A stretch of DNA of 64,000 bases from the IMG/VR virus record IMGVR_UViG_3300032116_000013, positions 32,001-96,000 of that record; one strand, written 5' to 3'. Under the pieces are notes generated by a model, which saw nothing but the letters and a program-made list of their open reading frames with translations, had not been told where the DNA came from and made no database searches. Shown here piece by piece: positions 32,537 to 59,439 of this stretch. Source of the DNA: a virus. The position numbers were made by a program, and so were the translations under genes. Position 1 is the stretch's first letter, and each line of letters begins with the position of its first letter.

Positions 32537-32626
32537 CGTAAGTTATTGATTTTATTAGGGTTTTCGTAAGTTATTGATTTCATTAGAGTTTTTACTATTG
32601 CCTTTTTAGGCGAAAAGGCGCATAAT
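32537..32626 (+). promoter_or_regulatory. repeated early promoter cassette A (two motif copies)
   Basis: CGTAAGTTATTGATT motif at 32537 and 32565; TTGCCT-17-CATAAT. Confidence 0.8.
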
Positions 32627-32636
32627 ATCTGATACT

Positions 32637-32840
32637 ATGAAAATATATTACGAAGTTTACGAAAACGCGCGAGTCAACCACCCGATTACGGGGGAACGGG
32701 TCAACGGGAATAAAAAAATCCTGACGACCAAGAACCGTAAGAAGGCGCTCGACCTATACCGCGAGAAGGAAAAGACTCGGTGGGTCGAGGAAATTACAGA
32801 CTATGGGAGCGGCGGGAGCACCGATATCATAACTGAGTAA
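32637..32840 (+). CDS. early hypothetical protein
   Basis: First ORF after cassette A. Confidence 0.6.
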   Translation: MKIYYEVYENARVNHPITGERVNGNKKILTTKNRKKALDLYREKEKTRWVEEITDYGSGGSTDIITE

Positions 32841-32891
32841 GGGTAAACCCTGCGCCTCCCCTCGGGCTTTTAATGCGGTTCTAGGGGATGG

Positions 32892-32953
32892 CGTAAGTTA
32901 TTGATTTCATTAGGGTTTTCACCCTTTACTTTTTCGGTAAAATCACGCATAAT
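32892..32953 (+). promoter_or_regulatory. repeated early promoter cassette B
   Basis: Motif plus TTTACT-17-CATAAT. Confidence 0.8.
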
Positions 32954-32959
32954 ACTTCT

Positions 32960-33166
32960 ATGATAAACGAAAACACCGACGCGCAGGTTAAAGCGCAAAT
33001 TATCCAACGCATTAACGCACTCAAGCCCGACGCGATAGCGCACGGATTCGACTACCCGACGCAGGCACCCGAGACCGCAACGGTCGCCGAACTTTTAGAT
33101 TTTCTGGTAGAGATTTCAGCGTATATCGGCGCAGCCGCCAGCCAGCCGCCGACTGTAAGTCATTAA
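32960..33166 (+). CDS. early hypothetical protein
   Basis: First ORF after cassette B. Confidence 0.6.
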   Translation: MINENTDAQVKAQIIQRINALKPDAIAHGFDYPTQAPETATVAELLDFLVEISAYIGAAASQPPTVSH

Positions 33167-33215
33167 TTTCATTAGGGTTTTTACTATTGCCTTTTTACAA
33201 GAAAAAGCGCATAAT
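33155..33215 (+). promoter_or_regulatory. repeated early promoter cassette C
   Basis: Motif plus TTGCCT-17-CATAAT. Confidence 0.8.
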
Positions 33216-33247
33216 AGTTGTATGATAAATGATAAGGTGAAAGTCTA

Positions 33248-34126
33248 ATGCCTCGTGGTGTACCTAAGAACGGTTTCCGTAACACTCGCAAGCGTCGTCT
33301 TGCTGGAATCAAGGTTTCTTCTTCTCCTGCCTTCGTTCAGCCTGTTCGGGTTGAGTCGGTGGTCGAGATCGAAGCCAAGTTGAAGGATCGATTCGAGGCT
33401 CTCGAAATTATGTCCGAAGCAACGGGCAAGGGCATCAACCGATCGCTGATCGTTTCTGGTCCCGCTGGTCTTGGTAAGTCCTTCACGGTCGAAGCCAAGA
33501 TGGCGGAACTCGAGTCCAAGGGTCATAACGTAGTATACATCAAGGGTTACGTTCGTCCTCTTGCGCTCTACAAGTTGCTGTACGAAACTCGGTTCTCGAA
33601 CAGCGTTCTTGTGTTCGATGACTCTGACTCCATCTTTCATGATGACGTCAGCATGAATCTTCTGAAGGGTGCTTGCGATTCTACGGATCGTCGCGTTCTT
33701 CACTGGTTGTCGCGTTCACTCGAGCGTGAGTCGGATGAAGATGGCGAAAATATTCCTGAGAAGTTTGAATTCGAGGGTTCGATCATCTTCATCACCAACT
33801 ACGACTTCGACTCGCTCATCGCTTCGGGTAACAAGTTGGCTCCGCACTTTGAGGCTCTTGTGTCTCGTTCGCACTATCTGGATCTTGCGATGAAGACCAA
33901 GATGGATTATCTTGTTCGCATCAAGCAAGTTGTGCGTGGCGGTATGCTGAAGTCGCGTGGTCTGAACACCATCGACGAAACGCTGATCATGCAGTTTATC
34001 GAAAACAACGTTGACCGTTTGCGTGAGTTGTCGCTGCGAATGGTTGTCAAGATCTCTGGTCTGTATAAGATGGACAAGAGCAACTGGCAAAAGTTGGCGA
34101 AGCAGACTTGCTTCCGCGCTGCTTAA
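33248..34126 (+). CDS. P-loop (AAA-like) ATPase
   Basis: Walker A GPAGLGKS, Walker B VLVFDD. Confidence 0.85.
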   Translation: MPRGVPKNGFRNTRKRRLAGIKVSSSPAFVQPVRVESVVEIEAKLKDRFEALEIMSEATGKGINRSLIVSGPAGLGKSFTVEAKMAELESKGHNVVYIKGYVRPLALYKLLYETRFSNSVLVFDDSDSIFHDDVSMNLLKGACDSTDRRVLHWLSRSLERESDEDGENIPEKFEFEGSIIFITNYDFDSLIASGNKLAPHFEALVSRSHYLDLAMKTKMDYLVRIKQVVRGGMLKSRGLNTIDETLIMQFIENNVDRLRELSLRMVVKISGLYKMDKSNWQKLAKQTCFRAA

Positions 34127-34138
34127 TTGGAAAACAAA

Positions 34139-34327
34139 ATGTTTAAATTGCGAAATTACAACGAATTCAAAAATCATATACGGTGGCACGACTACTTTGC
34201 CATCATGATCAATGAATTTGCTGTCGTTCAAGTCCGCCGTTACGAATGGTTTGACAAGGAACAGTATACCTTTGTCATTCAAGTATTTGGATTTACCGTG
34301 TTTCAGCGCACAGGAAATATGCGATGA
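34139..34327 (+). CDS. hypothetical protein
   Basis: Short in-operon ORF. Confidence 0.5.
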   Translation: MFKLRNYNEFKNHIRWHDYFAIMINEFAVVQVRRYEWFDKEQYTFVIQVFGFTVFQRTGNMR

Positions 34328-34671
34328 CTGACATAAATCTTGAAGGATTATCAGACAAGCAACTACGACTATTCGCCGTCCGTTGTGCAAGGCGAGTACA
34401 GCATCTGATGACTGATCCACGGTCTATTGCTGCATTGGATGTTGCCGAGCGTTACGCCCATGGCGAAGCGACGGACGAGGAGTTGCGCGCAGCACAGGTT
34501 GCGGCAGGGGCTGCGGCGGATGCGGCGTGGACTGCGGCGGATGCGGCGTGGGTTGCGGCACGGAATGTGGCGTGGGCTGCGAAGGATGCGGCGTGGGTTG
34601 CGAAGGATGCGGCGCTGGCTGCCGAACTCGCCGAGCAACAAAAGATTTTGGATGAGATTCGACAGCAATAA
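34324..34671 (+). CDS. Ala/Trp-repeat protein with Imm5-like N-terminus, copy 1
   Basis: [10 protein letters not shown]...[19 protein letters not shown] followed by AAW repeats. Confidence 0.7.
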   Translation: MTDINLEGLSDKQLRLFAVRCARRVQHLMTDPRSIAALDVAERYAHGEATDEELRAAQVAAGAAADAAWTAADAAWVAARNVAWAAKDAAWVAKDAALAAELAEQQKILDEIRQQ

Positions 34672-34717
34672 TTGTTGAGTTGACTTTTTAAAATTGTTAA
34701 GGTACAATATATAAGTT

Positions 34718-35827
34718 ATGGCAAAATTTATTCCAAAGGTTGTTCCCGAGCCTACTTGGGATTCCAACGCAAAAAGTCCTTGCACACAGTTTGAATTGGT
34801 GCGAGCGTTTCAATGGTACAATCACAACAAGACTAACAAAGATGCAAGAAAGTATTTGTTAGAATATCTTGCAAAAGAACAGATGATCACTCCGCTGCAA
34901 ATACAAGCAGCGCAGTATCTCAACGACTCTTGGAATATTGTTGACGGTTGGCTTGCGCGATGTTTGGATCGCGGAGCACTTGTTCCTGATAATACTCTTA
35001 TCAATTTCGGCGATCGCATGAAAGAGTTTCTTGCGCGTCTTGATAAGATCGTACAAGAACGTGGTCTTGCAACTGTTGTTGTGGATACAAGCAACGTTGT
35101 TTCAATTCAAGAGCGTGTGACTGCCAAGACCGATTATTTCATCATGGAACTGGAAGCCAAGTTTGATGAGTTTTGGCATAAGAATTCTCCCGAGGACTTT
35201 GATCCATATACATGGATGATCGAGAACGAAGTCAAGCCAATGCATGCAGCGAAGATTGCTGAGTATTGTCGGCAGCGAGCCAAGGAATGGGTGAGTATTA
35301 TTGAAGGTCGCAAGACTGACGAATACATCAAGGAATCATATCCGCGTTCTCACAAGGAATATCTCCACGCTGCGAATCTCTTTTTGTTGTTTGCCACAGA
35401 TGCTGAGAAACTGGCATCTAACAAGAATGCTGCTCGTAAGCCGCGCAAGAAGAAGCCCATCTCCTTTGAGAAGAAGGTCAAGAATCTTAAATTTAAGAAG
35501 GAAGATACAGAGAACAAGTTGGTCTCAATCGACCCTGTTCGCATCATGGGTGCTGAAAAGTTATGGGTATATAACGTCAAGACTCGTAAACTTGGCGTCT
35601 ATGTAGCGGCTGATCAGGCTGGTCTTGGTGTCAAGGGTTCGGCGATCGAGAACTATAAATATGGTGAGTCCATCGGCAAAACTCTACGGAAGCCAAAAGA
35701 CGTTCTTCCGCGAGTTTTGGACGGAGGCAAGATTGTATTGCGTAAGGTCATGGGCGAGATTAATTCTAAGTCCAGCGAGTTGAATGGTCGAATCAACAAG
35801 GACACAATACTTCTAAGAGTGGAGTAG
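34718..35827 (+). CDS. conserved T4-like phage hypothetical protein
   Basis: 369 aa, preceded by TTGACT-17-TACAAT promoter at about 34680. Confidence 0.75.
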   Translation: MAKFIPKVVPEPTWDSNAKSPCTQFELVRAFQWYNHNKTNKDARKYLLEYLAKEQMITPLQIQAAQYLNDSWNIVDGWLARCLDRGALVPDNTLINFGDRMKEFLARLDKIVQERGLATVVVDTSNVVSIQERVTAKTDYFIMELEAKFDEFWHKNSPEDFDPYTWMIENEVKPMHAAKIAEYCRQRAKEWVSIIEGRKTDEYIKESYPRSHKEYLHAANLFLLFATDAEKLASNKNAARKPRKKKPISFEKKVKNLKFKKEDTENKLVSIDPVRIMGAEKLWVYNVKTRKLGVYVAADQAGLGVKGSAIENYKYGESIGKTLRKPKDVLPRVLDGGKIVLRKVMGEINSKSSELNGRINKDTILLRVE

Positions 35828-35836
35828 AGTAATCAA

Positions 35837-36370
35837 ATGATCACAGTCACTAGCAATTATTTGAACGCTAAAGATCTTGCTATGGTGCGCAAATATTCTA
35901 GGTTTGTAATGGATCGCTTGGTGCGTCGTGGAGTGCAAAACAAGTCTCGTGTTTCGATCAAGATTCTTGGCGAGCAAGAAATCAAAGATGCTGCTGATCT
36001 TCTTGATCTGAAGAAATACAAAGCCTGGTGCACTTATGATGGAACTGATGCCGAAGGCAGAAAACTCTTCACTGTTGTTCTAGATCACAAACGTCTGAAT
36101 AAGAATGGTAAGAAGCCGATCACAAGACTCAAGAATGTGATGATTGATCTTGGTCACGAATTGGTTCACGTCAAGCAATATTTGTGCAATGAGATTTTTG
36201 ATTATAAGAATGGTGATGTAAGATATAAGGGTTTGATCTTTGATGCTTCGCATTACATGGATGAAGAAAAGTATTTCGACAGTCCTTGGGAAGTTGAAGC
36301 ATATGGCAGAGAGTACGGAATGTACAAGATCTTTTGTAATAAACTTAAAGAGGAGCGTTTGAGTAAATAA
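35837..36370 (+). CDS. zincin-like metallopeptidase
   Basis: HELVHVKQ and PWEVEAY. Confidence 0.75.
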   Translation: MITVTSNYLNAKDLAMVRKYSRFVMDRLVRRGVQNKSRVSIKILGEQEIKDAADLLDLKKYKAWCTYDGTDAEGRKLFTVVLDHKRLNKNGKKPITRLKNVMIDLGHELVHVKQYLCNEIFDYKNGDVRYKGLIFDASHYMDEEKYFDSPWEVEAYGREYGMYKIFCNKLKEERLSK

Positions 36371-36372
36371 TT

Positions 36373-36558
36373 ATGTCTAGCAAGAAGAAGAATGAGTTCC
36401 GCGAAAAAGATTACAGTCGGAACAGCGAAGGATTGAAGCAGCGTCGTTTGAAGAATGAGTCGCGCTGGAAGTTTAATCCAAACTCAGATTACGTTGAAGA
36501 TGATTCGTTAACAGACGAAGAAGATTGGTTCCAAGACCCAGAGTACGATCAACGGTAA
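36373..36558 (+). CDS. small charged hypothetical protein
   Basis: In-operon ORF. Confidence 0.55.
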   Translation: MSSKKKNEFREKDYSRNSEGLKQRRLKNESRWKFNPNSDYVEDDSLTDEEDWFQDPEYDQR

Positions 36559-36561
36559 TAT

Positions 36562-37215
36562 ATGAATTGTTTTGACATAGTAGAAAATTATGCAAAACAG
36601 TTTTCTGAAATTTTAGCGAAAGATTCAGAGCCTGTACAGTTTCCAGAATTCCCTTGGAAAAATCAGATCTGGCGATCAAATAAATTTCGAAGAGCACACG
36701 TTGAAGAATTTGTAAGTCCAGCGATATCCGTTCTTCACGTTACAGTATTCCCACACTTAGATGATCCATCGCCGATCTATGGATTTGATGTTGTAACGGG
36801 TGCCAAGAAACCAGCAGGTGGATATATTGATATGTCACCTTCAGTTGAAACTTGGAATAGGTGGAGAAGTTGGATTCCTTTTGATGTTCCACCGAATAAA
36901 GCAATTCCAGAATGGGGAACTTGTTTCTCTGATGAATTCGTAGCAATTCCATTACGTGACTCAGCGCATCTAGAAGAATTGCTGAAGTATGGAGTTTCCA
37001 TGCTGTCTGAATATTTAAATCGAATACAACAAAATAAAGTAGCGCAAGAACAAGTTGTAGAACGCCAACTCTACTATTGCCAACAACAGCGTAACAACCA
37101 GAAGACCATGCAGATATTAGAACGCATGATCGGCTTGGAGCGGGCAAATCTATTCATGAATGAAGTCCTTTTCCCAGACCCCATTGCAGCCCCATCCACC
37201 CTCAGGGTAGGGTAA
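36562..37215 (+). CDS. ferredoxin-dependent bilin reductase (PcyA/PcyX-like)
   Basis: RRAHVE, LHVTVFP, IYGFDV, D.SP, PEWG..FS, Q..YC.QQ..N.KT. Confidence 0.8.
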   Translation: MNCFDIVENYAKQFSEILAKDSEPVQFPEFPWKNQIWRSNKFRRAHVEEFVSPAISVLHVTVFPHLDDPSPIYGFDVVTGAKKPAGGYIDMSPSVETWNRWRSWIPFDVPPNKAIPEWGTCFSDEFVAIPLRDSAHLEELLKYGVSMLSEYLNRIQQNKVAQEQVVERQLYYCQQQRNNQKTMQILERMIGLERANLFMNEVLFPDPIAAPSTLRVG

Positions 37216-37271
37216 GGTATACCCCAAAACCGACCCGCTGCAATGGGTTTATAGGACGTTCTGGGGGCACT

Positions 37272-37333
37272 CGTAAGTCATTGATTCTATTAAGGTTTTT
37301 ATCGTTTACTTTTTCGACGAAAAAGCGCATAAT
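37272..37333 (+). promoter_or_regulatory. repeated early promoter cassette D
   Basis: Motif plus TTTACT-17-CATAAT. Confidence 0.8.
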
Positions 37334-37339
37334 ATATCT

Positions 37340-37711
37340 ATGAAATACGAAACTTACACCTTCGACGAAAACATCCTTTCCGACCTTCACAAGGACGCCT
37401 ACGGGTTCCGTCCCAGCGGAGATTTCTTCCGCGAGTGGGATTTGCTTGACAACGATGGCAAGCAAGATCTCTGGGAACAACTTATTGATGCCGTTCGCGA
37501 TTCGATTCTCGAGGAAGCACGTTACCACAATATGGCGATTGCTGAGTTTGAGGGTTGGGTGAAACAGACGATGAAGATCGTCGTTGATTCAACTCGCGAA
37601 GATTGCATTCGCATGATGCATGACGCGCACGAAACTCGTGGTGATGTCGAGTATCTCGAGCATTGCCTCGGTGTCCCGTATGGTTATCTCAGTGGCAAAA
37701 ATTGGGGTTGA
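37340..37711 (+). CDS. early hypothetical protein
   Basis: SDLHKDAYGFRP pattern; first ORF after cassette D. Confidence 0.7.
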   Translation: MKYETYTFDENILSDLHKDAYGFRPSGDFFREWDLLDNDGKQDLWEQLIDAVRDSILEEARYHNMAIAEFEGWVKQTMKIVVDSTREDCIRMMHDAHETRGDVEYLEHCLGVPYGYLSGKNWG

Positions 37712-37712
37712 T

Positions 37713-38027
37713 ATGTTATTTGAAAATTATGATTTTGACATGGCTCTTTACAAGTACGCGGATCATCTCGCAGCGAATTACAATTCCACTGGCTCTACTG
37801 GCGGATACTCTATCAGTTATGTGAAGGGTCGCAAGTTTCTAAAGGTTGTCAAAACTTCTTGGAATTCTCCTTCGGTGCATTCTTTTATCTGCATCAAGGA
37901 ACATGACCAGTGGAAGTATGGTGACATTCTGAAGGCTGCTTCTTGGGCGCAGCCCGCGAAGAATTTTGCTCGCGGGAATGTTCTGGATACTAATTCTTAC
38001 AAAAATATATCATGGACGGGTGCTTAA
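37713..38027 (+). CDS. conserved phage hypothetical protein
   Basis: GDILKAASWAQPAKNFARGNV pattern. Confidence 0.7.
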   Translation: MLFENYDFDMALYKYADHLAANYNSTGSTGGYSISYVKGRKFLKVVKTSWNSPSVHSFICIKEHDQWKYGDILKAASWAQPAKNFARGNVLDTNSYKNISWTGA

Positions 38028-38239
38028 TGAATAATTGGAATCTCGAAGGTTTGCATGTGACTGGCATGTACATGGGTGAATTCCCTGTTTCTGGTCGCGT
38101 TGAATCGAGTCGTGTAAAGTATGGTGGTGGCGTTCAGCATACTGTCGTTCTTGATCAGTCAATTGAAATTTATAGTCAAGTGCGTGATCGTTTGCTTTTG
38201 AATCATGAAAATGTTACTCGTGTTCGGAGTGCTGCATAA
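38027..38239 (+). CDS. hypothetical protein
   Basis: Overlapping stop/start chain. Confidence 0.65.
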   Translation: MNNWNLEGLHVTGMYMGEFPVSGRVESSRVKYGGGVQHTVVLDQSIEIYSQVRDRLLLNHENVTRVRSAA

Positions 38240-38418
38240 TGGTAAATCTTCACGTGGAACTCATCAAGACGTTGGACGTTCGTGTCAAGAATCTTGAAGA
38301 TGTATTGATGCGCCTTGTTGTTGCTGTTGAGCAAGGCAAGCACATCGACTATAGCGAAGACTTGCAAGAATTGGTTGATGAAGCAAAGTCTGTAATCGAA
38401 GGGGAGTTTGAGGAATAA
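38239..38418 (+). CDS. small hypothetical protein (59 aa)
   Basis: Read by eye; TAATG overlap on both sides. Confidence 0.6.
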   Translation: MVNLHVELIKTLDVRVKNLEDVLMRLVVAVEQGKHIDYSEDLQELVDEAKSVIEGEFEE

Positions 38419-38564
38419 TGAGTAAGCAAGATGTTGCTGGTTTCGCTGCTTTGACGTTTATCGTTCTGGTTGTTGTAGGAACGATTTGGTTGAACGTTGA
38501 AGTTTGGGGTGAATGCCGTCAAACGAATTCTTTTTGGTATTGCGTAAAATTGGTGAGCAAATAA
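38418..38564 (+). CDS. small membrane protein (48 aa)
   Basis: Read by eye; one TM and two Cys. Confidence 0.55.
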   Translation: MSKQDVAGFAALTFIVLVVVGTIWLNVEVWGECRQTNSFWYCVKLVSK

Positions 38565-38565
38565 T

Positions 38566-38970
38566 ATGGCAGTTGCAGTTCCCAAAGTTGGTTCGCGTGT
38601 TCGAGTGACTACGATGTACCCGAACACGTATGCGTATCGCAATGAGTATGACAATTATGTCACATACACTCGCGAGGGTGTTGTCGTTGAGTCAATCTTC
38701 CGCGATCCGTTCATGTTCGCTGTCAAGACTGGTGATCCTGATCATCCTGTCAGCGAGTACAACGCAAAATCTTTGCACGTTGTAAAGATCGAGTATGTTA
38801 CTGGATCAGCAACGCAAGTTGCGACTGACAAGAAAGCCTGGAAGGTCAAGAGCGGCAAGGGTGATGGGTTCTACATTGTTGAACGTGTCAATGGAAAGTT
38901 CTCTTGCACGTGTAAGGGTTTTGAGTTCCGCAAAGACTGTAAGCATGTGGGTGCTGTGAGTAAAAAGTAA
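38566..38970 (+). CDS. SWIM zinc-finger protein
   Basis: CTCKGFEFRKDCKH. Confidence 0.8.
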   Translation: MAVAVPKVGSRVRVTTMYPNTYAYRNEYDNYVTYTREGVVVESIFRDPFMFAVKTGDPDHPVSEYNAKSLHVVKIEYVTGSATQVATDKKAWKVKSGKGDGFYIVERVNGKFSCTCKGFEFRKDCKHVGAVSKK

Positions 38971-39341
38971 TGAGTGTGAATGATTATCAACAATCATTAG
39001 TTGCTGCTGGTGCGCGAGTGATCGCGTTCCAGGAGTTTGGTGATTGGCAAGGATCATGGGTTGCTTTGGTCGAGTACCAAGGGCAACGTGGCTGGGTGCA
39101 GGGATCATATGGTTCTTGCGACCACTGCGATGCGTTTCAATCAGAGTTTTCTTGGGATTCTGATTTTGCATGTGAAGATGTACAAGATCGTTTTGCTCAG
39201 TTCGGTCGCACATACTTGGATGATATTTTAACAACTGAGCAAGTGTTGAGTCGGTATAATGCTGATGCAGAATGGGATTCAGAGTCGGCAGACGCTGCTG
39301 CGTGGGTTTACCATGCTCAGCGGCAATATGGAGTTGAGTGA
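38970..39341 (+). CDS. hypothetical protein
   Basis: YGSCDHCDAF motif. Confidence 0.65.
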   Translation: MSVNDYQQSLVAAGARVIAFQEFGDWQGSWVALVEYQGQRGWVQGSYGSCDHCDAFQSEFSWDSDFACEDVQDRFAQFGRTYLDDILTTEQVLSRYNADAEWDSESADAAAWVYHAQRQYGVE

Positions 39342-39365
39342 TGAACGAACAAACTAAACGCTGGA

Positions 39366-39689
39366 TTGATGAGGAATATTGAAATGTCTGAAATGACTAA
39401 AATCGTATACAGTGCTTGCTATGGTGGTTTCGGTTTGTCTGAGAAGGCAATCAGCCGATACTGGGAACTCAAGGGCGAACCTTGCCCCAAAAATTGGTAC
39501 GATAGAGGAATTGACCGTACTGACCCGATTCTTGTTCAGGTCGTCGAGGAACTTGGCGAAGATGCAAATGGTCCCTATGCGAAGTTAAGAATCAAAGAAC
39601 TACCAAAGGGTACAATCTATCGCATCGATGAGTATGATGGTTTTGAGAGTGTGAAAACTCAAGATGATTATGATTGGAGTGTTGCTTGA
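39366..39689 (+). CDS. conserved phage hypothetical protein
   Basis: CYGGFGLS...R.DP.LVQVVEELG...IDEYDG.E. Confidence 0.7.
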   Translation: MMRNIEMSEMTKIVYSACYGGFGLSEKAISRYWELKGEPCPKNWYDRGIDRTDPILVQVVEELGEDANGPYAKLRIKELPKGTIYRIDEYDGFESVKTQDDYDWSVA

Positions 39690-41945: not shown

Positions 41946-42007
41946 CGTAAGTTATTGATTCTATTAGGTTTTTTAGTCTTTACTTTTCGACGCTTGTAGG
42001 GCATAAT
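41946..42007 (+). promoter_or_regulatory. repeated early promoter cassette E, upstream of the tRNA array
   Basis: Motif plus TTTACT-17-CATAAT. Confidence 0.8.
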
Positions 42008-42186
42008 AGTTCTATAGAGTTGAGTAAGGAAAGAAATATTGAGTAGTCGATAAAAGCGACTCACAGTGCTGATGCGGAACGAGACTGCGCGAGAGCACTA
42101 TAATATCTCGCAAATGGGCGGACAGGAAACATGAACGGGATGGCGAAAACTCCCATAGTAAGACTCCTGATGATATATGTAATTTT

Positions 42187-42628: not shown

Positions 42629-42702
42629 GGGACTGAAACATTAAAGTGATGTAACGGACTTTTAATCCGTAAAAGAGGGAGCGTTACCCTCCAGTCCTAC
42701 CA
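42629..42702 (+). tRNA. tRNA-Lys(TTT), atypical T-loop
   Basis: Loop CTTTTAA; T-loop AGCGTTA. Confidence 0.85.
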
Positions 42703-44827: not shown

Positions 44828-44901
44828 GCCTCTTTAGTTCAATAGCAGAACACATTCTTGGTAAGGATGAAACGATGGAGCGTAACCATCATGAGGCACC
44901 A
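44828..44901 (+). tRNA. tRNA-Thr(GGT), atypical T-loop
   Basis: Loop TTGGTAA; T-loop AGCGTAA; one acceptor mismatch. Confidence 0.8.
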
Positions 44902-45164: not shown

Positions 45165-45239
45165 GCTGCTTTAACTGAGATAGATTAGTGCGAGTCTGAA
45201 GAACTCGATAGGTTGGTGCGATACCAACAGGCAGCACCA
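45165..45239 (+). tRNA. tRNA-Phe(GAA), atypical T-loop
   Basis: Loop CTGAAGA; T-loop TGCGATA. Confidence 0.85.
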
Positions 45240-51027: not shown

Positions 51028-51028
51028 T

Positions 51029-52056: not shown

Positions 52057-52057
52057 T

Positions 52058-52960
52058 ATGGCATTCACAGGCGTAGATGATTTAGTTTCTGAAATTTCTA
52101 ATGAAAAAATCTTTAGAGCGGATTGGCAGTACCACAATCAATTTGCACCCACTACAGTTAGTATCTCTGTCGGTTTAGATCTGGGATCGTCTCCTGGTCA
52201 GTACGGCGCACCAAATGCATTCCCAGGAACTGCGCTAAACTGGGTTACGTGTAATGAGTCTGCTGGCAATGGTACGCAAATATTTGGCATTCCACATGGC
52301 GGCAACGTTTCCCCCGATAAAAAACATTTAATTAGTGCAATTACTGTCCACCCTGCAGGACCTCCAGTCGTTGGTGGTAATCTCGTTCTAGTGGATTTAC
52401 AGGGTTATTGGCCAGGCATTTCTCACACAACTACAACAACACAAACACTTGTTGGCACACCATCATTGCGTTATGCAAATGGTGATGGATGTAGATTGTA
52501 CATGGTTACGACAACTGGACTTGGTGCAACTGCGCATAATATTCGTATAAATTATTACGATCAAGGCAATAACCTAGCAAATACAGGTCTTGTTGCTGCA
52601 AGAGTTTCTTCTGTTGTTGGTCAAATTAATAGTTGTTTACCAGGCGCTGCTCCATCTCTATATTTTCCACTAGTAGATGGTGATACTGGAGTTCAAAATG
52701 CTGCCAACGTGACTATGTCTGCAGCATCTACTGCTGGAGTTTCAGCCTTGTGTTTAGCAAGACCACTTATTCACATTCCATTAGTTACAGCGGCGCATGT
52801 TGCGAACGAAAAAGAATTCGTATACCAAACACCAAGCATGCCAGAAATTAAAGATGGAGCATGTTTGACATGGCTTTACTTTAGTGGTACTGGTGGTACT
52901 AGTTCGACGGTCGCGGCAGGTACAAACTTTTATGGTGAAATACAGGTTGCCTGGGGCTAG
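52058..52960 (+). CDS. putative structural protein, paralogue 2
   Basis: DLQGYWPGI, GTPSLRY.NG, GDTGVQN, terminal AWG. Confidence 0.75.
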   Translation: MAFTGVDDLVSEISNEKIFRADWQYHNQFAPTTVSISVGLDLGSSPGQYGAPNAFPGTALNWVTCNESAGNGTQIFGIPHGGNVSPDKKHLISAITVHPAGPPVVGGNLVLVDLQGYWPGISHTTTTTQTLVGTPSLRYANGDGCRLYMVTTTGLGATAHNIRINYYDQGNNLANTGLVAARVSSVVGQINSCLPGAAPSLYFPLVDGDTGVQNAANVTMSAASTAGVSALCLARPLIHIPLVTAAHVANEKEFVYQTPSMPEIKDGACLTWLYFSGTGGTSSTVAAGTNFYGEIQVAWG

Positions 52961-53000
52961 TGATAAATAATTCAAATAAACAGTTTTTGGAGAACATAAC

Positions 53001-53882
53001 ATGAGTTTTTCCTCAATGGATGATCTAATTTCCGAGATGGCTAACGGAAAGACAAACAGATACGAATGGAACAAAGTTACTGGTGCTGCTGCATATACTG
53101 CAGGTCGTTGGTATGACTTTAGTTCTGTTGGTGGTTCACCAATCGCTAACGCATGGGCTGGCACAGCATTGAACTGGAAAACGTGCGATGAAAGCACTGG
53201 TAACGGTACTCAGATTTTTGGCATCCCGCATTTTGGCAACGTAAGCACAGATACAAAACACATTATCAACGTTATGGCAACCACTGCAGTTGCAACTGGT
53301 GTTCCTGGACAGTTGATGCTTGTCGATCTTCAAGGGTACTGGCCAGGTATTTCAACGAACTCTGCTTCGGCTCAAACTCTAGTGGGAACTCCATCATTAC
53401 GTTATGCTAACGGTGCTGGTTGTAGATTGTTTTTTGTAGCGACGGTTGCTTCTGGCGCCACTGCTCATAATATGTCGATATCATATACCAATCAAGCAGG
53501 AACAGGTTCAAGAGCATTTCCCTCAACAGTTGGTATGACCGCTTCAGCGATCGCTGGACACATTTCTCATTCAGGAACTGCAGCATTGAATTATGGTCCT
53601 TTCTTGCCTCTTGCTAATGGTGACACTGGCGTTCAAAACGTAGCGACCGTTACATTCTCAGCAGCATCGGGTGCTGGTACTGGCGCATTATGTTTGGCTC
53701 GTCCTCTGTTGACCATTCCATTGGTCACTGCTGCTGTTGCAAACGAAAGAGACCTACTGAATCAGTTGCCATCACTACCAAGAGTTCTCGATGGCGCATG
53801 TTTAGTTTGGTTGTACTATGCTGGTGCAGCAACTGCTGCAGCCACAAACTTCTATGGTTCTCTTGAATACGTGTGGGGCTAA
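53001..53882 (+). CDS. putative structural protein, paralogue 3
   Basis: Same motifs, terminal VWG. Confidence 0.75.
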   Translation: MSFSSMDDLISEMANGKTNRYEWNKVTGAAAYTAGRWYDFSSVGGSPIANAWAGTALNWKTCDESTGNGTQIFGIPHFGNVSTDTKHIINVMATTAVATGVPGQLMLVDLQGYWPGISTNSASAQTLVGTPSLRYANGAGCRLFFVATVASGATAHNMSISYTNQAGTGSRAFPSTVGMTASAIAGHISHSGTAALNYGPFLPLANGDTGVQNVATVTFSAASGAGTGALCLARPLLTIPLVTAAVANERDLLNQLPSLPRVLDGACLVWLYYAGAATAAATNFYGSLEYVWG

Positions 53883-53885
53883 TCA

Positions 53886-54740
53886 ATGCCAATTAATTCA
53901 CTAGACCATTTGATGAGAAAAACCACTGACGGCTCTTTGTTCAGTGCTGACTGGATGTTAACAACTAACATTGCTTTTGCTGCTGGTCGTTGGCAAGATA
54001 TGTCTAGAAATGGGATTTACCCATCACCAAATCTTTATCCTGGAACATCACTGACATGGGTAGATTGTAATTCTTCCACTGCATTCGCAATTCCAACAGG
54101 TCCTGATACCATCGCTGGATCTGGGATGACTAAACACTGCATTTTTGCAAGTGCTTTAACTGCTGCCCCAGCAGGTGTTCCAGGTATGTTTGTATTGGTT
54201 GATCTACAAGGTTATTGGCCAGGTATCAATACTGCCACTACGTTGCTACAAACATTATCTGGCACACCATCATTACGTTATACTAATGGCGAAGGGTTGA
54301 AATTATACCCCGTTGTGACAGCCACAACAAGCACTGGTACACCAAACATATCACTATCTTATACAAACCAAGCGGGAACTTCGGGGCGCGCATTGGGTCA
54401 AACTGTCACTTGCGTTGCATCTTCTCCAATCGGATCACTTTATGCTAATTTGTGGGCTCCATTTTTACCACTTGCTGGCGGTGATACTGGAGTTCAAAAC
54501 GTAGCAACGGTCCAGATGTCTGCAGCAACTACAGGAGCGATTGCTTTGTGTTTGGCGAAACCAATTTTAACTGTACCAGTTGCAACTGTCAGTAATATGG
54601 TTGAAAGAGATTTCGTAAATCAATTTACCAGTTTACCTAGAATTATGAACAACGCATGTTTAACTTGGTTGTTTTATCCTGGTGCTGCTACTGTTATTAA
54701 TAGTAATTTCTATGGCTCACTCGAATTTGTTTGGGGATAA
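53886..54740 (+). CDS. putative structural protein, paralogue 4
   Basis: Same motifs, terminal VWG. Confidence 0.75.
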   Translation: MPINSLDHLMRKTTDGSLFSADWMLTTNIAFAAGRWQDMSRNGIYPSPNLYPGTSLTWVDCNSSTAFAIPTGPDTIAGSGMTKHCIFASALTAAPAGVPGMFVLVDLQGYWPGINTATTLLQTLSGTPSLRYTNGEGLKLYPVVTATTSTGTPNISLSYTNQAGTSGRALGQTVTCVASSPIGSLYANLWAPFLPLAGGDTGVQNVATVQMSAATTGAIALCLAKPILTVPVATVSNMVERDFVNQFTSLPRIMNNACLTWLFYPGAATVINSNFYGSLEFVWG

Positions 54741-54743
54741 GTA

Positions 54744-55619
54744 ATGGCATTTCAAGCACTTGATCATATGATTCAAAAAGTTTCTGGCGGTAACTTTTAT
54801 CGCTGGGATTGGTCTGCTGTTATCCCTGCTACACTTACCGCATCTAGATGGTACGATCTAAGTTCTACAATGCGTAGCCAACCAGCCAATGCTTGGGCGG
54901 GTACTTCCTTGGCATGGCGCACGTGCGATGAGTCTACTGGAAATGGAACTCAGATTTTTGGAATGCCTCATGGTGGCAACGTAAGCACTGCAACAAAGCA
55001 TGTGATAACTGCTACAGGGGGGAGTGGCACCTCGACGGCATTGGGTGTGCTGCAACTAATAGACATGCAAGGTTATTGGCCAGGCATTTCAACTGCTTCT
55101 GCATCAGCACAAACATTAACAGGCACACCATCATTACGTTACACAAATGGCGCTGGTTGCAGATTGTATTGGGTGCAAACTGTTGCTGCTGGTGCCACTC
55201 CACACAACATTGCTTTGTCGTATACAAATACTGCAGGAACTCCAGGACAAGCACTCGGTAGAACAGTGTCGATGACTGCATCTGCAATCGTCAATCACAT
55301 CTCACATTCAGGAACTGCAGCAGGTAATATTGGTCCATTTCTTCCGCTGGCTGCTGGCGACACTGGTGTTCAAAATGTTGCATCAGTTACATTCTCAGCC
55401 TCTTCTGGTGCTGGTTCTGGTGCGCTAGTGTTAGCAAAACCGTTATTGACAATACCTCTCACAACAGGATTTTTGTTGACTGAGAGAGACTGTATCAGCA
55501 TGCTACCAAGTTTACCAGAAATCAAAGATGGTGCATGTTTGACGTGGATGTTTTATACACATGCAGCAACTGCTGCTAGTTCTAATATGCACGGCAATTT
55601 AGATCTCGGATGGGCATAA
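54744..55619 (+). CDS. putative structural protein, paralogue 5
   Basis: Same motifs, terminal GWA. Confidence 0.75.
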   Translation: MAFQALDHMIQKVSGGNFYRWDWSAVIPATLTASRWYDLSSTMRSQPANAWAGTSLAWRTCDESTGNGTQIFGMPHGGNVSTATKHVITATGGSGTSTALGVLQLIDMQGYWPGISTASASAQTLTGTPSLRYTNGAGCRLYWVQTVAAGATPHNIALSYTNTAGTPGQALGRTVSMTASAIVNHISHSGTAAGNIGPFLPLAAGDTGVQNVASVTFSASSGAGSGALVLAKPLLTIPLTTGFLLTERDCISMLPSLPEIKDGACLTWMFYTHAATAASSNMHGNLDLGWA

Positions 55620-55620
55620 A

Positions 55621-56106
55621 ATGTTAAGATATAATTTCAACAATGCCACTGGTCTTTGTGCAAGACAGTTTGGAACTACTTACGGACTGCAAAGATATTT
55701 TTACAGCAGAACCGAACTCCGTAACATGTATGCGGGAGACGGATTAGAAAACAATAAGGCAGGTATCCCAAACGGTCATACTGAACCCAGTTCTTGGGTT
55801 ATCCCTCAATCGACTGGTTCTATTTCTGCTTACGAAGAAACCAGAACAGTAATGAGTTTGTCATTGGCTGTTGGCTCTCCTCTAGCAGGAAATGGAAATA
55901 CCACATTTGCAGTTACAACTTCTGGTACACTCGCAGGTATTGGTAATATAATTGGCGCCGTTACACCGTTCACTGAATTGAGTCCAAAGAATCTTGCTGA
56001 TGCTGTTTGGACTGCTGAGTCAAACCAATACACAACAGCAGGAACGATGGGCAAGAACGCAAATGATGTCAAGACTAATAGCGGTTTGATTCCTGCACTA
56101 GTTTAA
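55621..56106 (+). CDS. putative structural protein
   Basis: GIPNGH...SWVIP; LADAVW. Confidence 0.65.
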   Translation: MLRYNFNNATGLCARQFGTTYGLQRYFYSRTELRNMYAGDGLENNKAGIPNGHTEPSSWVIPQSTGSISAYEETRTVMSLSLAVGSPLAGNGNTTFAVTTSGTLAGIGNIIGAVTPFTELSPKNLADAVWTAESNQYTTAGTMGKNANDVKTNSGLIPALV

Positions 56107-56121
56107 GGTATAATTTTCGTT

Positions 56122-56448
56122 ATGAAGAAATTTACATTTGATGATCTACAGCCACACGTGGATATGCTCTGCGATGCATTAGAAAATCGCGGAGCATCTT
56201 CCTCTGGCATTCCCAACGAAGCAGTCTATCCGCAAGCGAAAGCGTATCGCAATCTTTTGTCTAAGGTAAGATCAAAGTCCATTACAGGATATGATCTTGA
56301 GATGATGCTTCATACTCTTGCGAACGAAACCCTTGATCTTGCTAAAAACAATCAATCGCATAGAATTGGTAAGATTGTATCAGCCCTTGACTTTTATGTC
56401 CGAAAAGAGTACAATAGTATCTGTTCGACAAATTATAGCAATAGGTGA
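56122..56448 (+). CDS. hypothetical protein
   Basis: ORF; its 3' end overlaps TTGACT-17-TACAAT (56387-56415). Confidence 0.6.
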   Translation: MKKFTFDDLQPHVDMLCDALENRGASSSGIPNEAVYPQAKAYRNLLSKVRSKSITGYDLEMMLHTLANETLDLAKNNQSHRIGKIVSALDFYVRKEYNSICSTNYSNR

Positions 56449-56481
56449 ATAAAATGGAATTTATCGCAGCAAATTTAATCG

Positions 56482-56790
56482 GTGCATTCGCAATTACAAT
56501 TGCGGTTCTTAGTTGCATCGTTCCGCAACTTTGGGATCGTATTCGGGGAAATGATTCTAATGATTGATATGCATTTTACAAATGTTCTGAATCTTGTTGA
56601 TTCGATTGATAATGTTCATCTTTCTGATGCATATGTGTCTATCGAAAAAGAAAGAGTAGACGAGTTAGTTCAATTTCTTAAAGAGCATGATATTCAATCA
56701 GCAGTTGTGAATTGGAATCATCCAGAAAGTTTGTATGTTGGTGAGGATAAAACTAAAAAAGATCTAGTGGTTCTTGCAATACATTGGTGA
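56482..56790 (+). CDS. hypothetical protein (start uncertain)
   Basis: ORF filling a gene-sized gap. Confidence 0.45.
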   Translation: MHSQLQLRFLVASFRNFGIVFGEMILMIDMHFTNVLNLVDSIDNVHLSDAYVSIEKERVDELVQFLKEHDIQSAVVNWNHPESLYVGEDKTKKDLVVLAIHW

Positions 56791-56834
56791 TTCTCTAATA
56801 AATATTTTATTATGCGTAGAGTGATGAGGAAGAT

Positions 56835-57407
56835 ATGTCTCTCGTACTGATTGTTGATAAGGGTGGTACACCTAAAGATTGGGCAAATCATGAAATCGCA
56901 GCATGTTACTATGCTCGCGAGAAAGTGCTATGGGAACTTGGAACAAAGATCAAGACCATGCTCGGCGGACACAATCAATACGGCGAGCAATCAAGAATTG
57001 AAATTTCATCAATCATCGGCGTATCAGGTCCGATCCTTGGTGACAAATTCTACAACACTCAAACAGTATTTGCGGATCGCATGACGCTGTACGCTCGCGA
57101 TCAACATATTTGCGCTTACTGTGGCGATGAGTTTTCAACCAGTTCTTTGACGATCGATCACGTGCACCCAAAGTCGCGTGGTGGCACAAACCACTGGACA
57201 AATTGCGTAACTGCGTGTCGTCCTTGCAATCATCGTAAGGGTTGGAAAACTCCAGAAGAAGCAAAGATGCATTTGCTATACGTTCCTTATGCGCCAACAG
57301 TGCACGAAAGAATTCTATTGAAGAATCGTAAGGTATTAGCGGATCAAATGGAGTTCTTGAAGGCAAGCATTCCAAAACATTCTAGAGTGTGGAGAAAATT
57401 ATCATGA
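56835..57407 (+). CDS. HNH endonuclease
   Basis: CAYCG...TIDHVHPKSRGG...NCVTACRPCN..KG. Confidence 0.92.
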   Translation: MSLVLIVDKGGTPKDWANHEIAACYYAREKVLWELGTKIKTMLGGHNQYGEQSRIEISSIIGVSGPILGDKFYNTQTVFADRMTLYARDQHICAYCGDEFSTSSLTIDHVHPKSRGGTNHWTNCVTACRPCNHRKGWKTPEEAKMHLLYVPYAPTVHERILLKNRKVLADQMEFLKASIPKHSRVWRKLS

Positions 57408-57592
57408 GCGAATATCTAGTTGATAAGGTTCGCAATATCGGATTTGATATGCGAGACAATTATATGGATGGTTACACTCAGTTTCACGCAAAGAAAAAGT
57501 TGTACAAACTTTTGTGGGAAATTGAAAAGCAACTCAAGGATGCGCCAACTTTCGTCGGCGAAGAAGAGTGGCTAAAGGAATATGGTAAGTAA
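57404..57592 (+). CDS. hypothetical protein
   Basis: In-operon ORF. Confidence 0.6.
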   Translation: MSEYLVDKVRNIGFDMRDNYMDGYTQFHAKKKLYKLLWEIEKQLKDAPTFVGEEEWLKEYGK

Positions 57593-57594
57593 TA

Positions 57595-57699
57595 ATGGCA
57601 GGGAAAGGAAGCAAGCCTAGACCACTGAGTGTTCCGCGAAAACAGTTTGATGATAACTGGGAACGCATTTTTGGAAAAAAGAAACAACCTAAAAAGTGA
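57595..57699 (+). CDS. small basic protein (34 aa)
   Basis: MAGKGSKPRP...NWERIFGKK, read by eye. Confidence 0.55.
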   Translation: MAGKGSKPRPLSVPRKQFDDNWERIFGKKKQPKK

Positions 57700-57705
57700 G
57701 AGTAT

Positions 57706-58020
57706 ATGAAATATTTTGAGTTTAGTGGAAAGGTACAGCGATCAGAGTTCTGGGCTACTAGCATTATTCTTTTCGTTCTGTTTTTTATCTGCATTGTGTC
57801 AGCAACAGCCATAACAGCATTTAATATGTTTATTGGAATCATTGCTGTCCTTGCTACGATCGTTGCTTCTGCTTGGGCGCAGATGGCAGTGATTGCGAAG
57901 CGTTGCCGTGATGCAGGAATCAATCCTTGGTGGACTGCAGCGTGTTACATTCCCTATCTTGGATTTATCATTTGGATCGTTATCGGATGTCTTTCAACAG
58001 ACAAGGAAGTGCAAGCATGA
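57706..58020 (+). CDS. DUF805-like membrane protein
   Basis: F.G...RSEFW, KRCRDAG...W, three TMs. Confidence 0.85.
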   Translation: MKYFEFSGKVQRSEFWATSIILFVLFFICIVSATAITAFNMFIGIIAVLATIVASAWAQMAVIAKRCRDAGINPWWTAACYIPYLGFIIWIVIGCLSTDKEVQA

Positions 58021-58256
58021 AGAAGTTAGCAGTATTGTTTATTGGTTTGTTCTCAGTTTCAGTCAACGCACAGGATCGCGTTGCCAAGTTTGATACTGAT
58101 GGCGACGCAAAGGTTTCTTTCGAAGAACTCATCGCTCAGTGTCCAAACACAATGAAGGCATTGTTCAGTTTGGCTGATAAGGACAACGATGGCTTTTTGA
58201 CGAATGTCGAAATGCGAACAGCGAAAGAGTATTTGTTCAAGAAGTGTAAGAATTAA
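58017..58256 (+). CDS. secreted EF-hand protein
   Basis: Signal peptide; DTDGDAKVSFEE and DKDNDGFLTNVE. Confidence 0.8.
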   Translation: MKKLAVLFIGLFSVSVNAQDRVAKFDTDGDAKVSFEELIAQCPNTMKALFSLADKDNDGFLTNVEMRTAKEYLFKKCKN

Positions 58257-58268
58257 TATATAAGATAT

Positions 58269-58343
58269 TGCGGGTTAGTTCAGTAGCAGAACGGTGGACT
58301 CATAATCCACAGGTCGGGCGTGCAATTCGCCCACCCGCTACCA
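58269..58343 (+). tRNA. isolated tRNA-Met(CAT), 1:72 mismatch, atypical T-loop
   Basis: Loop CTCATAA; T-loop TGCAATT; CCA. Confidence 0.8.
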
Positions 58344-58359
58344 TCTTGAAGGAAACATT

Positions 58360-58593
58360 ATGAAAGCAATTGTTTGGTCTAAAGTCAACTGTCCTTATTG
58401 CGTGAGTGCTGGTGTACTTCTGCGCGGAAAGGGTTACGAAGTTGAAGAGCGCAAAATCGGCAACGGTTGGACGAAAGAGCAACTTCTTGAGTCAGTGCCA
58501 ATGGCAAGAACTGTTCCACAGATTTTTGTCGATGGTGAGTACATTGGCAACTATGATGATCTTGTTCGACATTTCAATTCTAACAACGATTGA
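58360..58593 (+). CDS. glutaredoxin
   Basis: CPYC, TVPQIF..G..IG. Confidence 0.92.
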   Translation: MKAIVWSKVNCPYCVSAGVLLRGKGYEVEERKIGNGWTKEQLLESVPMARTVPQIFVDGEYIGNYDDLVRHFNSNND

Positions 58594-58600
58594 GAAATTT

Positions 58601-58813
58601 ATGAAGCAACTAGATTTATTCGCTGAGGCTGGAATCTGTCGCGCTGCTCCTGATGGTGTACACATCGTTGTTGATTCTCCGAAAATCTACGAAAGTCCAG
58701 ATAAAGGCAAAACGGTCTACCAGCGCGAGTTTGGTGAGTCAGAAAGAACGCTGGTTAAGACCGCCGTTCAGCAGCAATGGAACATCACCTTCGGATCTCC
58801 GAACGGAGCGTGA
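58601..58813 (+). CDS. hypothetical protein
   Basis: IYESPDKGKTVYQREFG motif. Confidence 0.65.
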   Translation: MKQLDLFAEAGICRAAPDGVHIVVDSPKIYESPDKGKTVYQREFGESERTLVKTAVQQQWNITFGSPNGA

Positions 58814-58904
58814 GTTTCAGCCGTTTTTGGCTCTATCCCTACCCTATCCCTACCCCAAAACCGACCCGCTGCAATGGGCTTGCAGGAGGTTTTGCAGACC
58901 TTGT

Positions 58905-59039
58905 GCAAGTCATTGATTCTATTAGGGATTCCCCATCTGGGTAAATTCTTGTAAGTTATTGATTTTACAAGGGTTTTCGTAAGTTATTGATTCTATTAGG
59001 TTTTTTACTATTGCCATTTTGACCCATTTTAGGCATAAT
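58905..59039 (+). promoter_or_regulatory. repeated early promoter cassette F (three motif copies)
   Basis: Motif at about 58905, 58951 and 58978; TTGCCA-17-CATAAT. Confidence 0.8.
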
Positions 59040-59094
59040 ATGTCTATAGGGTTGGGAAACGGGTTCCCCCCAGATAGTAGGAAGGAATAGAATT

Positions 59095-59370
59095 ATGGGT
59101 TTCACTTTAAAGCAGCGTCGCGAAATGATTCAGGTCGAGCGTGACGTTATCAAGGGTCTCCGCGAGGATCTTTTTCGGATTCGTCGTGCGCTGAACCAGT
59201 CGCGTCTGAATATCAAAATGCACCAGGAAGTCCTCGCGGAAGAGCGCAAGTTGAAGCGCATCGTGATGGAAGATAATCGCGCCCTGCGCGCTCAGAAGCG
59301 AGCCGAAAAGCGAGCCGCTCAGATCGCGAAGATGGAAGCGAAGATCGCCGCTCTGAAGGCGGCTGCGTAA
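59095..59370 (+). CDS. basic coiled-coil early protein
   Basis: First ORF after cassette F. Confidence 0.7.
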   Translation: MGFTLKQRREMIQVERDVIKGLREDLFRIRRALNQSRLNIKMHQEVLAEERKLKRIVMEDNRALRAQKRAEKRAAQIAKMEAKIAALKAAA

Positions 59371-59377
59371 GGGACTG

Positions 59378-59439
59378 CGTAAGTTATTGATTCTTAACGG
59401 TTTTTTACTATTGCCTTTTTTCTCCTAATATAGGATAAT
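59378..59439 (+). promoter_or_regulatory. repeated early promoter cassette G
   Basis: Motif plus TTGCCT-17-GATAAT. Confidence 0.75.

Follow-up and report, generated by a model that had tools for sequence, protein, structure and literature searches.

We report that a 28-nt box, repeated in a 64,000-nt stretch of IMG/VR virus record IMGVR_UViG_3300032116_000013, is built into the sigma70-type early promoters of an uncultured T4-like phage from water and closely resembles a binding site for IHF, a host protein that bends DNA. The stretch, hereafter the window, comprises bases 32001–96000 of this 197,424-bp record, which is rated complete. The finding is real and selected, and we hold with very high confidence that the element is a protein-binding site coupled to the promoters and set in helical phase with them. 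Judged from its sequence, the bound protein is predicted to be IHF, which we consider probable, and the wider picture of a host-IHF-type site in early-promoter cassettes that are frequently leaderless and take part in gene shuffling is, on balance, the one we prefer.

Scanning the window with the 28-nt consensus, allowing up to three mismatches, returned eight copies, starting at 32537, 32565, 32892, 33154, 37272, 41946, 58950 and 58978, against 0.00 expected from 100 shuffles. The 14-nt core GTAAGTYATTRATT gave ten matches (2.85 expected; none of the 100 shuffles reached ten), and the two additional copies, at 58904/58905 and 59378, have kept this core with a diverged 3′ half. The ten copies at seven loci listed in an initial annotation of this stretch were therefore all present, with none expected by chance, although two of their coordinates had to be shifted by one base (33154 instead of 33155 and 58950 instead of 58951). 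The genome-wide scan suggested there yielded 14 copies at 11 loci, all on the + strand, the loci outside the window being at genome positions 6503, 6836, 188704 and 191103. At all 11 loci the promoter-proximal copy begins 32 nt upstream of a −35 hexamer (TTGCCT, TTGCCA, TTTACT, TTGTGT, TTGAGT or TTGATA), followed after 17 nt by a −10 hexamer (CATAAT, TATAAT or GATAAT); the arrangement proposed for the window, TTGCCT/TTGCCA/TTTACT-17 nt-(C/G)ATAAT directly downstream of the proximal copy, was seen at each of its loci. Tandem copies are 28 nt (32537/32565 and 58950/58978) or 46 nt (58904/58950) apart; of the 27–28 nt period claimed earlier, only the 28 nt was recovered. Also as annotated, six cassettes in the window precede small open reading frames (ORFs) without a Pfam match and one precedes a tRNA array. 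The box of this phage includes the word CGTAAGTTATTGATT. We rejected an RNA element, since Rfam contained no family matching at the motif and the motif lies upstream of the predicted transcription start, and likewise a CRISPR-like solitary repeat, since the motif does not fold into a hairpin and lies outside the RNA made from its cassette.

The same unit is widespread among relatives. We found the 21-mer GTAAGTTATTGATTCTATTAG without any mismatch in 51 other IMG/VR stretches, and in total we collected ∼100 distinct copies of the box from ∼50 related viral contigs; five larger related records carry 2–7 core copies each. Among the ∼100 copies, hardly any variation was seen in the 14-nt core; the linker YTATTAG and the T-tract are ∼80% kept, and the flanks are not conserved. 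In relatives with only 64–75% nucleotide identity, the box was identical at 21 of 21 positions beside diverged flanks. The distance from the core start to the −35 hexamer was 32 or 33 nt in most copies, with alternatives at 35, 42, 43, 45 and 52 nt and second copies at 60–71 nt. A search that started from promoters instead found the core within 60 nt of 39 out of 55 strong promoter-like sites. In three contigs (L013, L058 and L059) the box is inverted beside a leftward promoter at one orthologous locus, and some other boxes lie back to back, flanked by divergent promoters. T4, RB49, S-PM2 and Melnitz yielded no comparable repeated word.

The conserved part of the box matches the two-domain layout of IHF sites. 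According to PMC7581858 (citing Goodman 1999), the 3′ domain of the IHF consensus is the 13-bp WATCAANNNNTTR, beside which lies a degenerate AT-rich 5′ domain. The conserved core GTAAGTYATTGATT agrees with this consensus, WATCAANNNNTTR being on the opposite strand: with the C that precedes it, (C)GTAAGTYATTGATT reads AATCAATRACTTAC on that strand, a perfect WATCAANNNNTTR. Likewise, the opposite strand of the core is AATCAATRACTTA, and YAANNNNTTGATW, which is WATCAANNNNTTR on the reverse strand, is matched exactly by nine of the ten window copies, the tenth (33154) differing by one mismatch. In eight of the ten window copies a T-tract 9 nt past TTGATT completes the layout (TAAGTYATTGATT, 9 nt, TTTTT), and conservation extends over 29 nt, in keeping with the degenerate AT-rich 5′ domain that brings an IHF site to ∼30–35 bp. 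As real IHF sites for comparison we fetched the lambda attP sequence. Its H1 site, CTAAGTAGTTGATTC, is identical to the motif core GTAAGTTATTGATTC at 12 of 15 positions and fits TAAGTNNTTGATT, the shorter word common to the phage box, Stenotrophomonas phage DLP6 (below) and H1, exactly; H2 reads TAATATATTGATA, 9 nt, TTTT, and the opposite strand of H′ reads CAACAAATTGATA, 8 nt, TTTTTT. The three sites thus resemble the phage box in two-domain layout and size, and in H2 and H′ the T-tract lies 8–9 nt past TTGATW, similar to the box. A template taken from H2 only, YAA-N4-TTGATW-N9-TTTT, had eight matches in the window, all of them motif copies (0.03 expected). The attP sites differ in being used for site-specific recombination, whereas the phage boxes stand at promoters, and the boxes are far more uniform than usual IHF sites.

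With a 17-nt spacer and the −10 hexamer at −12 to −7, the site spans ∼−67 to −40, its conserved core, with invariant G positions, covering −67 to −54. The core centre is at ∼−60.5, with alternatives 10 and 20 nt further upstream, which agrees with the position of Class I activators (near −61.5 or whole turns upstream of it). The two-fold symmetry expected for a dimer of the CRP type was not found, as the core is not palindromic. By-eye comparison with consensus sequences led us to set aside Fis, CRP/FNR, ArcA, CpxR, RcsB, Lrp, DnaA and the MotA box, for which few positions fit.

A counterpart of the box, recognised only by pattern search, is present in DLP6 (KU682439.2), whose host, Stenotrophomonas maltophilia, is a gammaproteobacterium, a group that has IHF. 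The word (G/C)TAAGTCGTTGATT occurs 32 times in this genome, compared with once for a control word, and forms 14 tandem pairs with a 25-nt period. Here the WATCAA strand faces the genes, and each pair is followed by a GC-rich hairpin and then by GGC-TTTACT-N16-TATAAT. Distances from the core end to the −35 hexamer were 10, 11, 20, 20, 20, 21, 21, 21, 21, 21, 31 and 31 nt; the spacing varies only in whole helical turns, as it does in the clade of the phage studied here. The DLP6 paper lists 25 ‘phage promoters’ identified by PHIRE, 22 of them in pairs before gene clusters, and says that phage promoters lack −35 and −10 boxes (PMC5349666). These are most likely the same repeats as our tandem pairs. 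Whereas that paper reads the repeat itself as the promoter, we find a sigma70-type promoter 10–31 nt downstream of it and read the repeat as an IHF-type site.

The word is not restricted to phages. The 21-mer with four Y positions was found in 88 bacterial stretches from many phyla, with ∼4 expected at even base composition, and the flanks of these matches are unrelated. Only one of the 88 (L156) is phage-like, and we made no host call from them. Some of the copies lie between iteron-like repeats beside primase–helicase (Prim-Pol/AAA_25) genes (L107 and L130) and others 2–30 nt from the ends of tRNA genes. The word TAAGTNNTTGATT gave 312 matches, as opposed to five for a backwards control, in 40 of 41 genomes of the family Comamonadaceae, to which Paracidovorax belongs; all of these genomes except the seed were unselected for the motif. 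This ∼60-fold excess of the extended word in bacterial chromosomes not selected for it makes a host factor more likely than a phage factor. Within these chromosomes, the NN of TAAGTNNTTGATT vary. In 30 chromosomal examples we observed C or G before TAAGT, YYATTR after TTGATT, and an A/T tract reaching to ∼+28 (AT content 0.6–0.87, compared with 0.37 overall). A perfect DnaA box was present within 200 nt in eight of these 30 (∼0.2 expected), and several of the examples look like replication origins. Origins and transposon or island ends are classical places for IHF sites in bacteria, and the word was found at places of this kind. The occurrence of the extended word together with its AT-rich half at origin-like places in unrelated chromosomes argues that the reader is a conserved host protein rather than a phage protein. 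A search for sigma54 promoters downstream of the chromosomal sites found none.

Several further bacterial occurrences came to light. In some of the 41 genomes (G011, G043 and others) many TAAGTNNTTGATT matches lie 28–210 nt from contig ends, which suggests a site near the ends of repeated mobile elements. The Acinetobacter baumannii plasmid NZ_CP133707.1 (L210; positions 56722–57645) carries about twelve tandem 83-bp repeats, each with CGTAAGTTATTGATTT, and 68 Acinetobacter plasmid records match this array, which may be a partition or iteron array with the same site. In three Comamonadaceae genomes (L257, L241 and L234) the site belongs to a conserved locus in which it is followed, ∼55 nt further on, by ttttcctgctacagtg-aaaaaagtgcaattaagtggtgaaaagtg.

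The initial annotation had remarked that the genes often start close to the promoter with no clear ribosome-binding site, and this turned out to be systematic: the ATG is located at the predicted transcription start, which we placed by the usual ∼7 nt from the −10 hexamer. In five of the 11 cassettes of this genome the ATG lies 6–7 nt past the −10 hexamer, leaving no room for a ribosome site, and opens ORFs of 89, 71, 68, 123 and 110 codons; in one further cassette it lies 10 nt past. A Shine–Dalgarno (SD) sequence with its start codon is present at four loci (33248 and 59095 in the window, 188791 and 191181 in the genome). When relatives are included, 30 of 55 distinct cassettes have an ATG 6–7 nt past the −10 hexamer, and 23 of these 30 open ORFs of at least 50 codons, compared with 3 of 60 in the other two frames. 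A further 17 cassettes have ATA at the same position, followed by a leader with a ribosome site. Orthologues retain the protein from its first codon (MKYENAVKIGD, MKYENSVKIG and MKCENTVKIG), and three DLP6 promoters show the ATG layout as well, the annotated start of AAY80_251 being that very ATG. In sum, an ATG at the predicted start points to leaderless messages in about half of the cassettes. At the other end of the gene, the TAA within the box (GTAAGT) serves the upstream gene as stop codon; this is so at genome positions 6837–6839 and 191104–191106 and at 4972–4974 of the related contig L027, and in the variant box at 33154 a TAA further in ends the upstream ORF; such genes therefore span from the ATG at +1 to the next box. 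The cI message of lambda that starts at PRM is leaderless too, with its ATG at the transcription start and no ribosome-binding leader; in the cassettes this layout, as predicted from promoter geometry, would recur in series at many early genes throughout a lytic phage clade. Our literature search found no reports of leaderless early genes in T4-like phages, none of IHF at T4-like early promoters, and no paper containing these sequence words.

At one locus (window 59046–59072) a conserved 5′ leader, ATAGGGTTGGGAAACGGGTTCCCC, begins at the predicted +1 and forms a small hairpin; a corresponding leader, GTAGGGTGAGGGAACGGTCCCC, follows positions 84046, 87625, 95546, 101435 and 121641 in DLP6, so that this leader is common to two distant phages.

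By role and setting, the closest known kind of element is the PeSL (promoter-early stem-loop) cassette, known in the T4-type phages RB49/phi1, PST/T4 and nt-1/KVP40 (PMC2839356, PMC4122927). PeSLs are repeated composite cassettes in which a sigma70-type early promoter stands beside small orphan genes in variable regions, and related phages exchange, lose and move genes at them, as we observed here. Promoters of this type, putatively strong, are found at all 11 loci, and the −35 hexamer TTTACT corresponds to the PST/T4 PeSL consensus TTTACW. The upstream part differs, being a generally AT-rich stretch in PeSLs and a 28-nt IHF-type box here; T4 and RB49 show no excess of the word. PeSLs also carry the SD sequence and start codon at their 3′ end, which are present at four of our loci but absent at 5 of 11. 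The stem-loop terminator that PeSLs have just upstream of the promoter was found as a strong structure in only one of seven intergenic upstream regions (32477–32536, z −5.7); of the other six, one folds modestly (z −2.2) and five no better than shuffled sequence. Four further boxes abut coding sequence. Neither IHF nor leaderless starts are mentioned in the two PeSL papers.

Comparison with four relatives (L027, L040, L025 and L055) confirmed that cassette-flanked genes relocate and are gained and lost, as with PeSLs. The 68-codon gene at 32960–33166 lies between two cassettes here, and its copy in L027, 86% identical, lies elsewhere, between homologues of genome positions 5766 and 6505, again flanked by cassettes. 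A low-GC gene at genome 5805–6405 (L061), between a conserved gene ending at ∼5790 and the cassette at 6503, is absent from that place in L027. L040 has an extra cassette-plus-gene unit between homologues of genome positions 7118 and 7121, and in L025 the 292-aa gene of cassette 3 is found among tRNA genes. In L055 a 2.7-kb stretch is replaced that is bounded by two promoters lacking the box. The breakpoint comparison suggested in the initial annotation also placed 14 homology end points within 60 nt of a cassette, with 4 expected, although this enrichment is weak evidence, as intergenic DNA aligns poorly anyway. The annotation's idea that the motif serves as a recombination unit is supported by the comparison with relatives, as in the relocated gene of L027.

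Taken together, these observations suggest the following course of events. Right after DNA entry, host IHF would bind the box, and its sharp bend, in fixed helical phase with RNA polymerase, would fold back onto the polymerase either the upstream DNA or a second copy occupied by IHF. This contact would stimulate promoters that combine T4-type −35 hexamers with the non-consensus −10 hexamer CATAAT. About half of the cassettes would have their transcription start at the A of the ATG 6–7 nt past the −10 hexamer and so yield leaderless early messages. The ∼75-bp cassettes, being alike, would serve as sites of crossover, where modules of a single gene move or are gained or lost, as happens at PeSLs. 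We infer the binder, the activating effect and the exact transcription start from what is directly visible, namely the motif and its statistics, the phased spacing, the likeness to IHF sites, the host chromosomes, the ORFs at the predicted start and the relocated modules.

Host bending proteins upstream of phage early promoters have precedents in lambda pL and Mu Pe, both of which are stimulated by IHF. Those sites are centred at around −80 to −90 and are single cases, whereas the site described here abuts the −35 hexamer (centre ∼−54) and recurs as a module at most of the early promoters in a lytic T4-like phage. T4 early promoters have UP-like A-tracts that are read by the alpha subunit of the polymerase; sequence beyond the −35 hexamer thus adds to early promoter function in T4, as it would here, but T4 has no repeated word of the IHF type.

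Several points weigh against IHF as the activating reader. That this phage infects a host with IHF is an assumption. Each clade shows almost no variation at the positions not read by IHF (the NN of TAAGTNNTTGATT and the linker), which copying among cassettes could explain but which would suit a more specific protein as well. At lambda pL, Mu Pe and ilvPG, the IHF sites are further from the polymerase than ∼−54, and a site near −54 could hinder as well as help, which makes activation a guess. The DLP6 site faces the opposite way, and a simple estimate of the bend centre puts the two clades on different helical faces. Finally, five of the bacterial 21-mer matches lie inside the mnmE coding sequence of Methylophilales; we set these aside as probably meaningless, but they show that not every occurrence is a site.

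The initial annotation had proposed an operator, or a UP-like activator site, read by some factor of phage or host, which holds in outline but is unspecific. If the more specific protein were encoded by the phage, injected or made very early, it could read the box and switch the early promoters on or later off. The nearly invariant NN, which differ between the clades (GTYA here, GTCG in DLP6), look like co-evolution of a site with such a reader. We nevertheless regard a phage protein as unlikely: the clade difference follows genome G+C (55.8% in DLP6, as given in PMC5349666, and ∼42% in this phage), and the same word with its AT-rich half is abundant in unrelated bacterial chromosomes, beside DnaA boxes and iterons and with varying NN. 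Nor is any candidate DNA-binding gene linked to the motif; the winged-helix protein at 61083–61490, suggested earlier as the one to try, has no Pfam match and nothing connects it to the motif. A UP element that the alpha subunit contacts, or an AT-rich stretch retained through descent, would require no separate protein and would account for a box upstream of the −35 hexamer whose T-tract, at ∼−44 to −40, lies where proximal UP subsites sit. Its most conserved part, however, covers −67 to −54, for the most part outside the UP zone, and contains invariant G positions; the core tolerates moves of 10 and 20 bp as well as reverse orientation, and occurs away from promoters in origin-like regions of bacteria. 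The stretch from −59 to −38 fits only ∼6 of the 14 specified positions of the UP consensus (by eye), and T4, RB49, S-PM2 and Melnitz are without such a word. The plain UP element is the part of the initial proposal that finds no support, and we consider it very improbable.

We give equally little credence to the idea that the box acts in recombination or plasticity only, as a crossover or homing sequence whose link to promoters is a by-product of cassette duplication. The relocated cassette-flanked genes and the end points near cassettes would be expected from it. But the end-point enrichment may only reflect weaker intergenic conservation, and duplication explains neither the ∼10-bp spacing steps in two distant clades nor a box that is identical at 21 of 21 positions beside diverged flanks in relatives of 64–75% nucleotide identity. 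An IHF-type site coupled to the promoters remains the reading that we prefer.

The coordinates of the cassettes and of the promoters without a box are given in Table 1. The latter form a second class closer to consensus (TTGACTTTTGC..., 17 nt, TA(C/G/T)AAT). The layout of cassette 6, with its three boxes, is also present in the relative L055.

Table 1. Cassettes and other promoter features (window positions unless marked as genome)
Feature	Position	Strand	Details
Distal box, first of tandem pair	32537–32564	+	Directly 3′ of strong terminator hairpin 32500–32529 (−27 kcal/mol, z −5.7)
Cassette 1	32565–32640	+	Box 32565–32592; −35 TTGCCT 32598–32603; −10 CATAAT 32621–32626
Cassette 1 ORF	ATG 32637; ends 32840		ATG 10 nt past −10; 67 codons
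Cassette 2	32892–32962	+	Box 32892–32919; −35 TTTACT 32925–32930; −10 CATAAT 32948–32953
Cassette 2 ORF	ATG 32960; ends 33166		ATG 6 nt past −10; 68 codons; candidate leaderless message
Cassette 3	33154–33250	+	Variant box GTAAGTCATTAATT 33154–33181; −35 TTGCCT 33187–33192; −10 CATAAT 33210–33215
Cassette 3 gene	ATG 33248		Leader with AAGGTGA; 292 aa; weak AAA-type ATPase matches
Cassette 4	37272–37342	+	Box 37272–37299; −35 TTTACT 37305–37310; −10 CATAAT 37328–37333
Cassette 4 ORF	ATG 37340		ATG 6 nt past −10; 123 codons; candidate leaderless message
Cassette 5	41946–42014	+	Box 41946–41973; −35 TTTACT 41979–41984; −10 CATAAT 42002–42007
Cassette 5 downstream	tRNA array from 42187		ATA at predicted start
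Cassette 6	58904–59097	+	Boxes 58904–58931 (degenerate), 58950–58977 and 58978–59005; −35 TTGCCA 59011–59016; −10 CATAAT 59034–59039
Cassette 6 leader	from 59046; ATG 59095		5′ hairpin from 59046; AGGAAGG ribosome site; 91 codons
Cassette 7	59378–59449	+	Box 59378–59405, core intact, 3′ half diverged; −35 TTGCCT 59411–59416; −10 GATAAT 59434–59439
Cassette 7 ORF	ATG 59447		ATG 7 nt past −10; 110 codons; candidate leaderless message
Motif-less promoters	34680, 56387, 60184, 61015; genome 11908, 97631		

Upstream of three cassettes (window 58857–58893 and 37226–37260; genome 6455–6491, L061) we noticed an element of ∼37 nt, AAAACCGACCCGCTGCAA-N5-TTGCAGGAGGTTTT, that forms a hairpin with a changed loop and is also present in the relatives L019, L047 and L055. 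It could act as a weak terminator, or else be bound by a protein.

Among the genes of the phage are those for a T4-type portal, sheath, large terminase, UvsW and a family B polymerase; nearly all its genes lie on one strand, and ARAGORN called 26 tRNA genes. Its nearest cultured portals are those of Methylophilales phage Melnitz, Stenotrophomonas phage DLP6 and cyanomyoviruses, with only 50–54% identity, and BLAST found no cultured phage sharing DNA or the cassette with it. A cyanophage host was rejected, as a search of the genome for psbA found none and the nearest portals include those of the Methylophilales and Stenotrophomonas phages. No HU/IHF gene was found when we looked for one in the phage genome. 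That four relatives (L023, L060, L030 and L053) align across the record ends (1 and 197424) shows the genome to be circularly permuted or complete, in line with a T4-like phage. Three segments of the window (42629–42699, 44828–44898 and 45165–45236) score 44–50 bits with the Rfam tRNA model and were not called by ARAGORN.

Our reading of DLP6 would correct the published one, in which the repeats are themselves promoters, and the idea can be put to a direct test there, since both DLP6 and its host are cultivable. Serial leaderless early genes would be unusual in a lytic phage of Gram-negative hosts. Beyond phages, the over-representation of the extended IHF-type word in Burkholderiales chromosomes may help to find origins and the ends of mobile elements. 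Less probably, TAAGTNNTTGATT with its AT-rich partner could be a high-affinity architectural site across bacterial phyla on which a lineage of T4-like phages would have come to base its entire early programme; if true, early transcription, much of it leaderless, would be tuned to the IHF level and growth state of the host, with the boxes driving gene shuffling as well, and TAAGTNNTTGATT would be shared almost unchanged by origins in chromosomes, by plasmids and mobile elements, and by phages. Early promoters of the T4 type are thought to rely on polymerase alone, helped by the injected protein Alt. The role of Alt is summarised in PMC5349666. A host bending protein in nearly every early promoter of a widespread lineage would, if true, add a new layer of host dependence to these phages.

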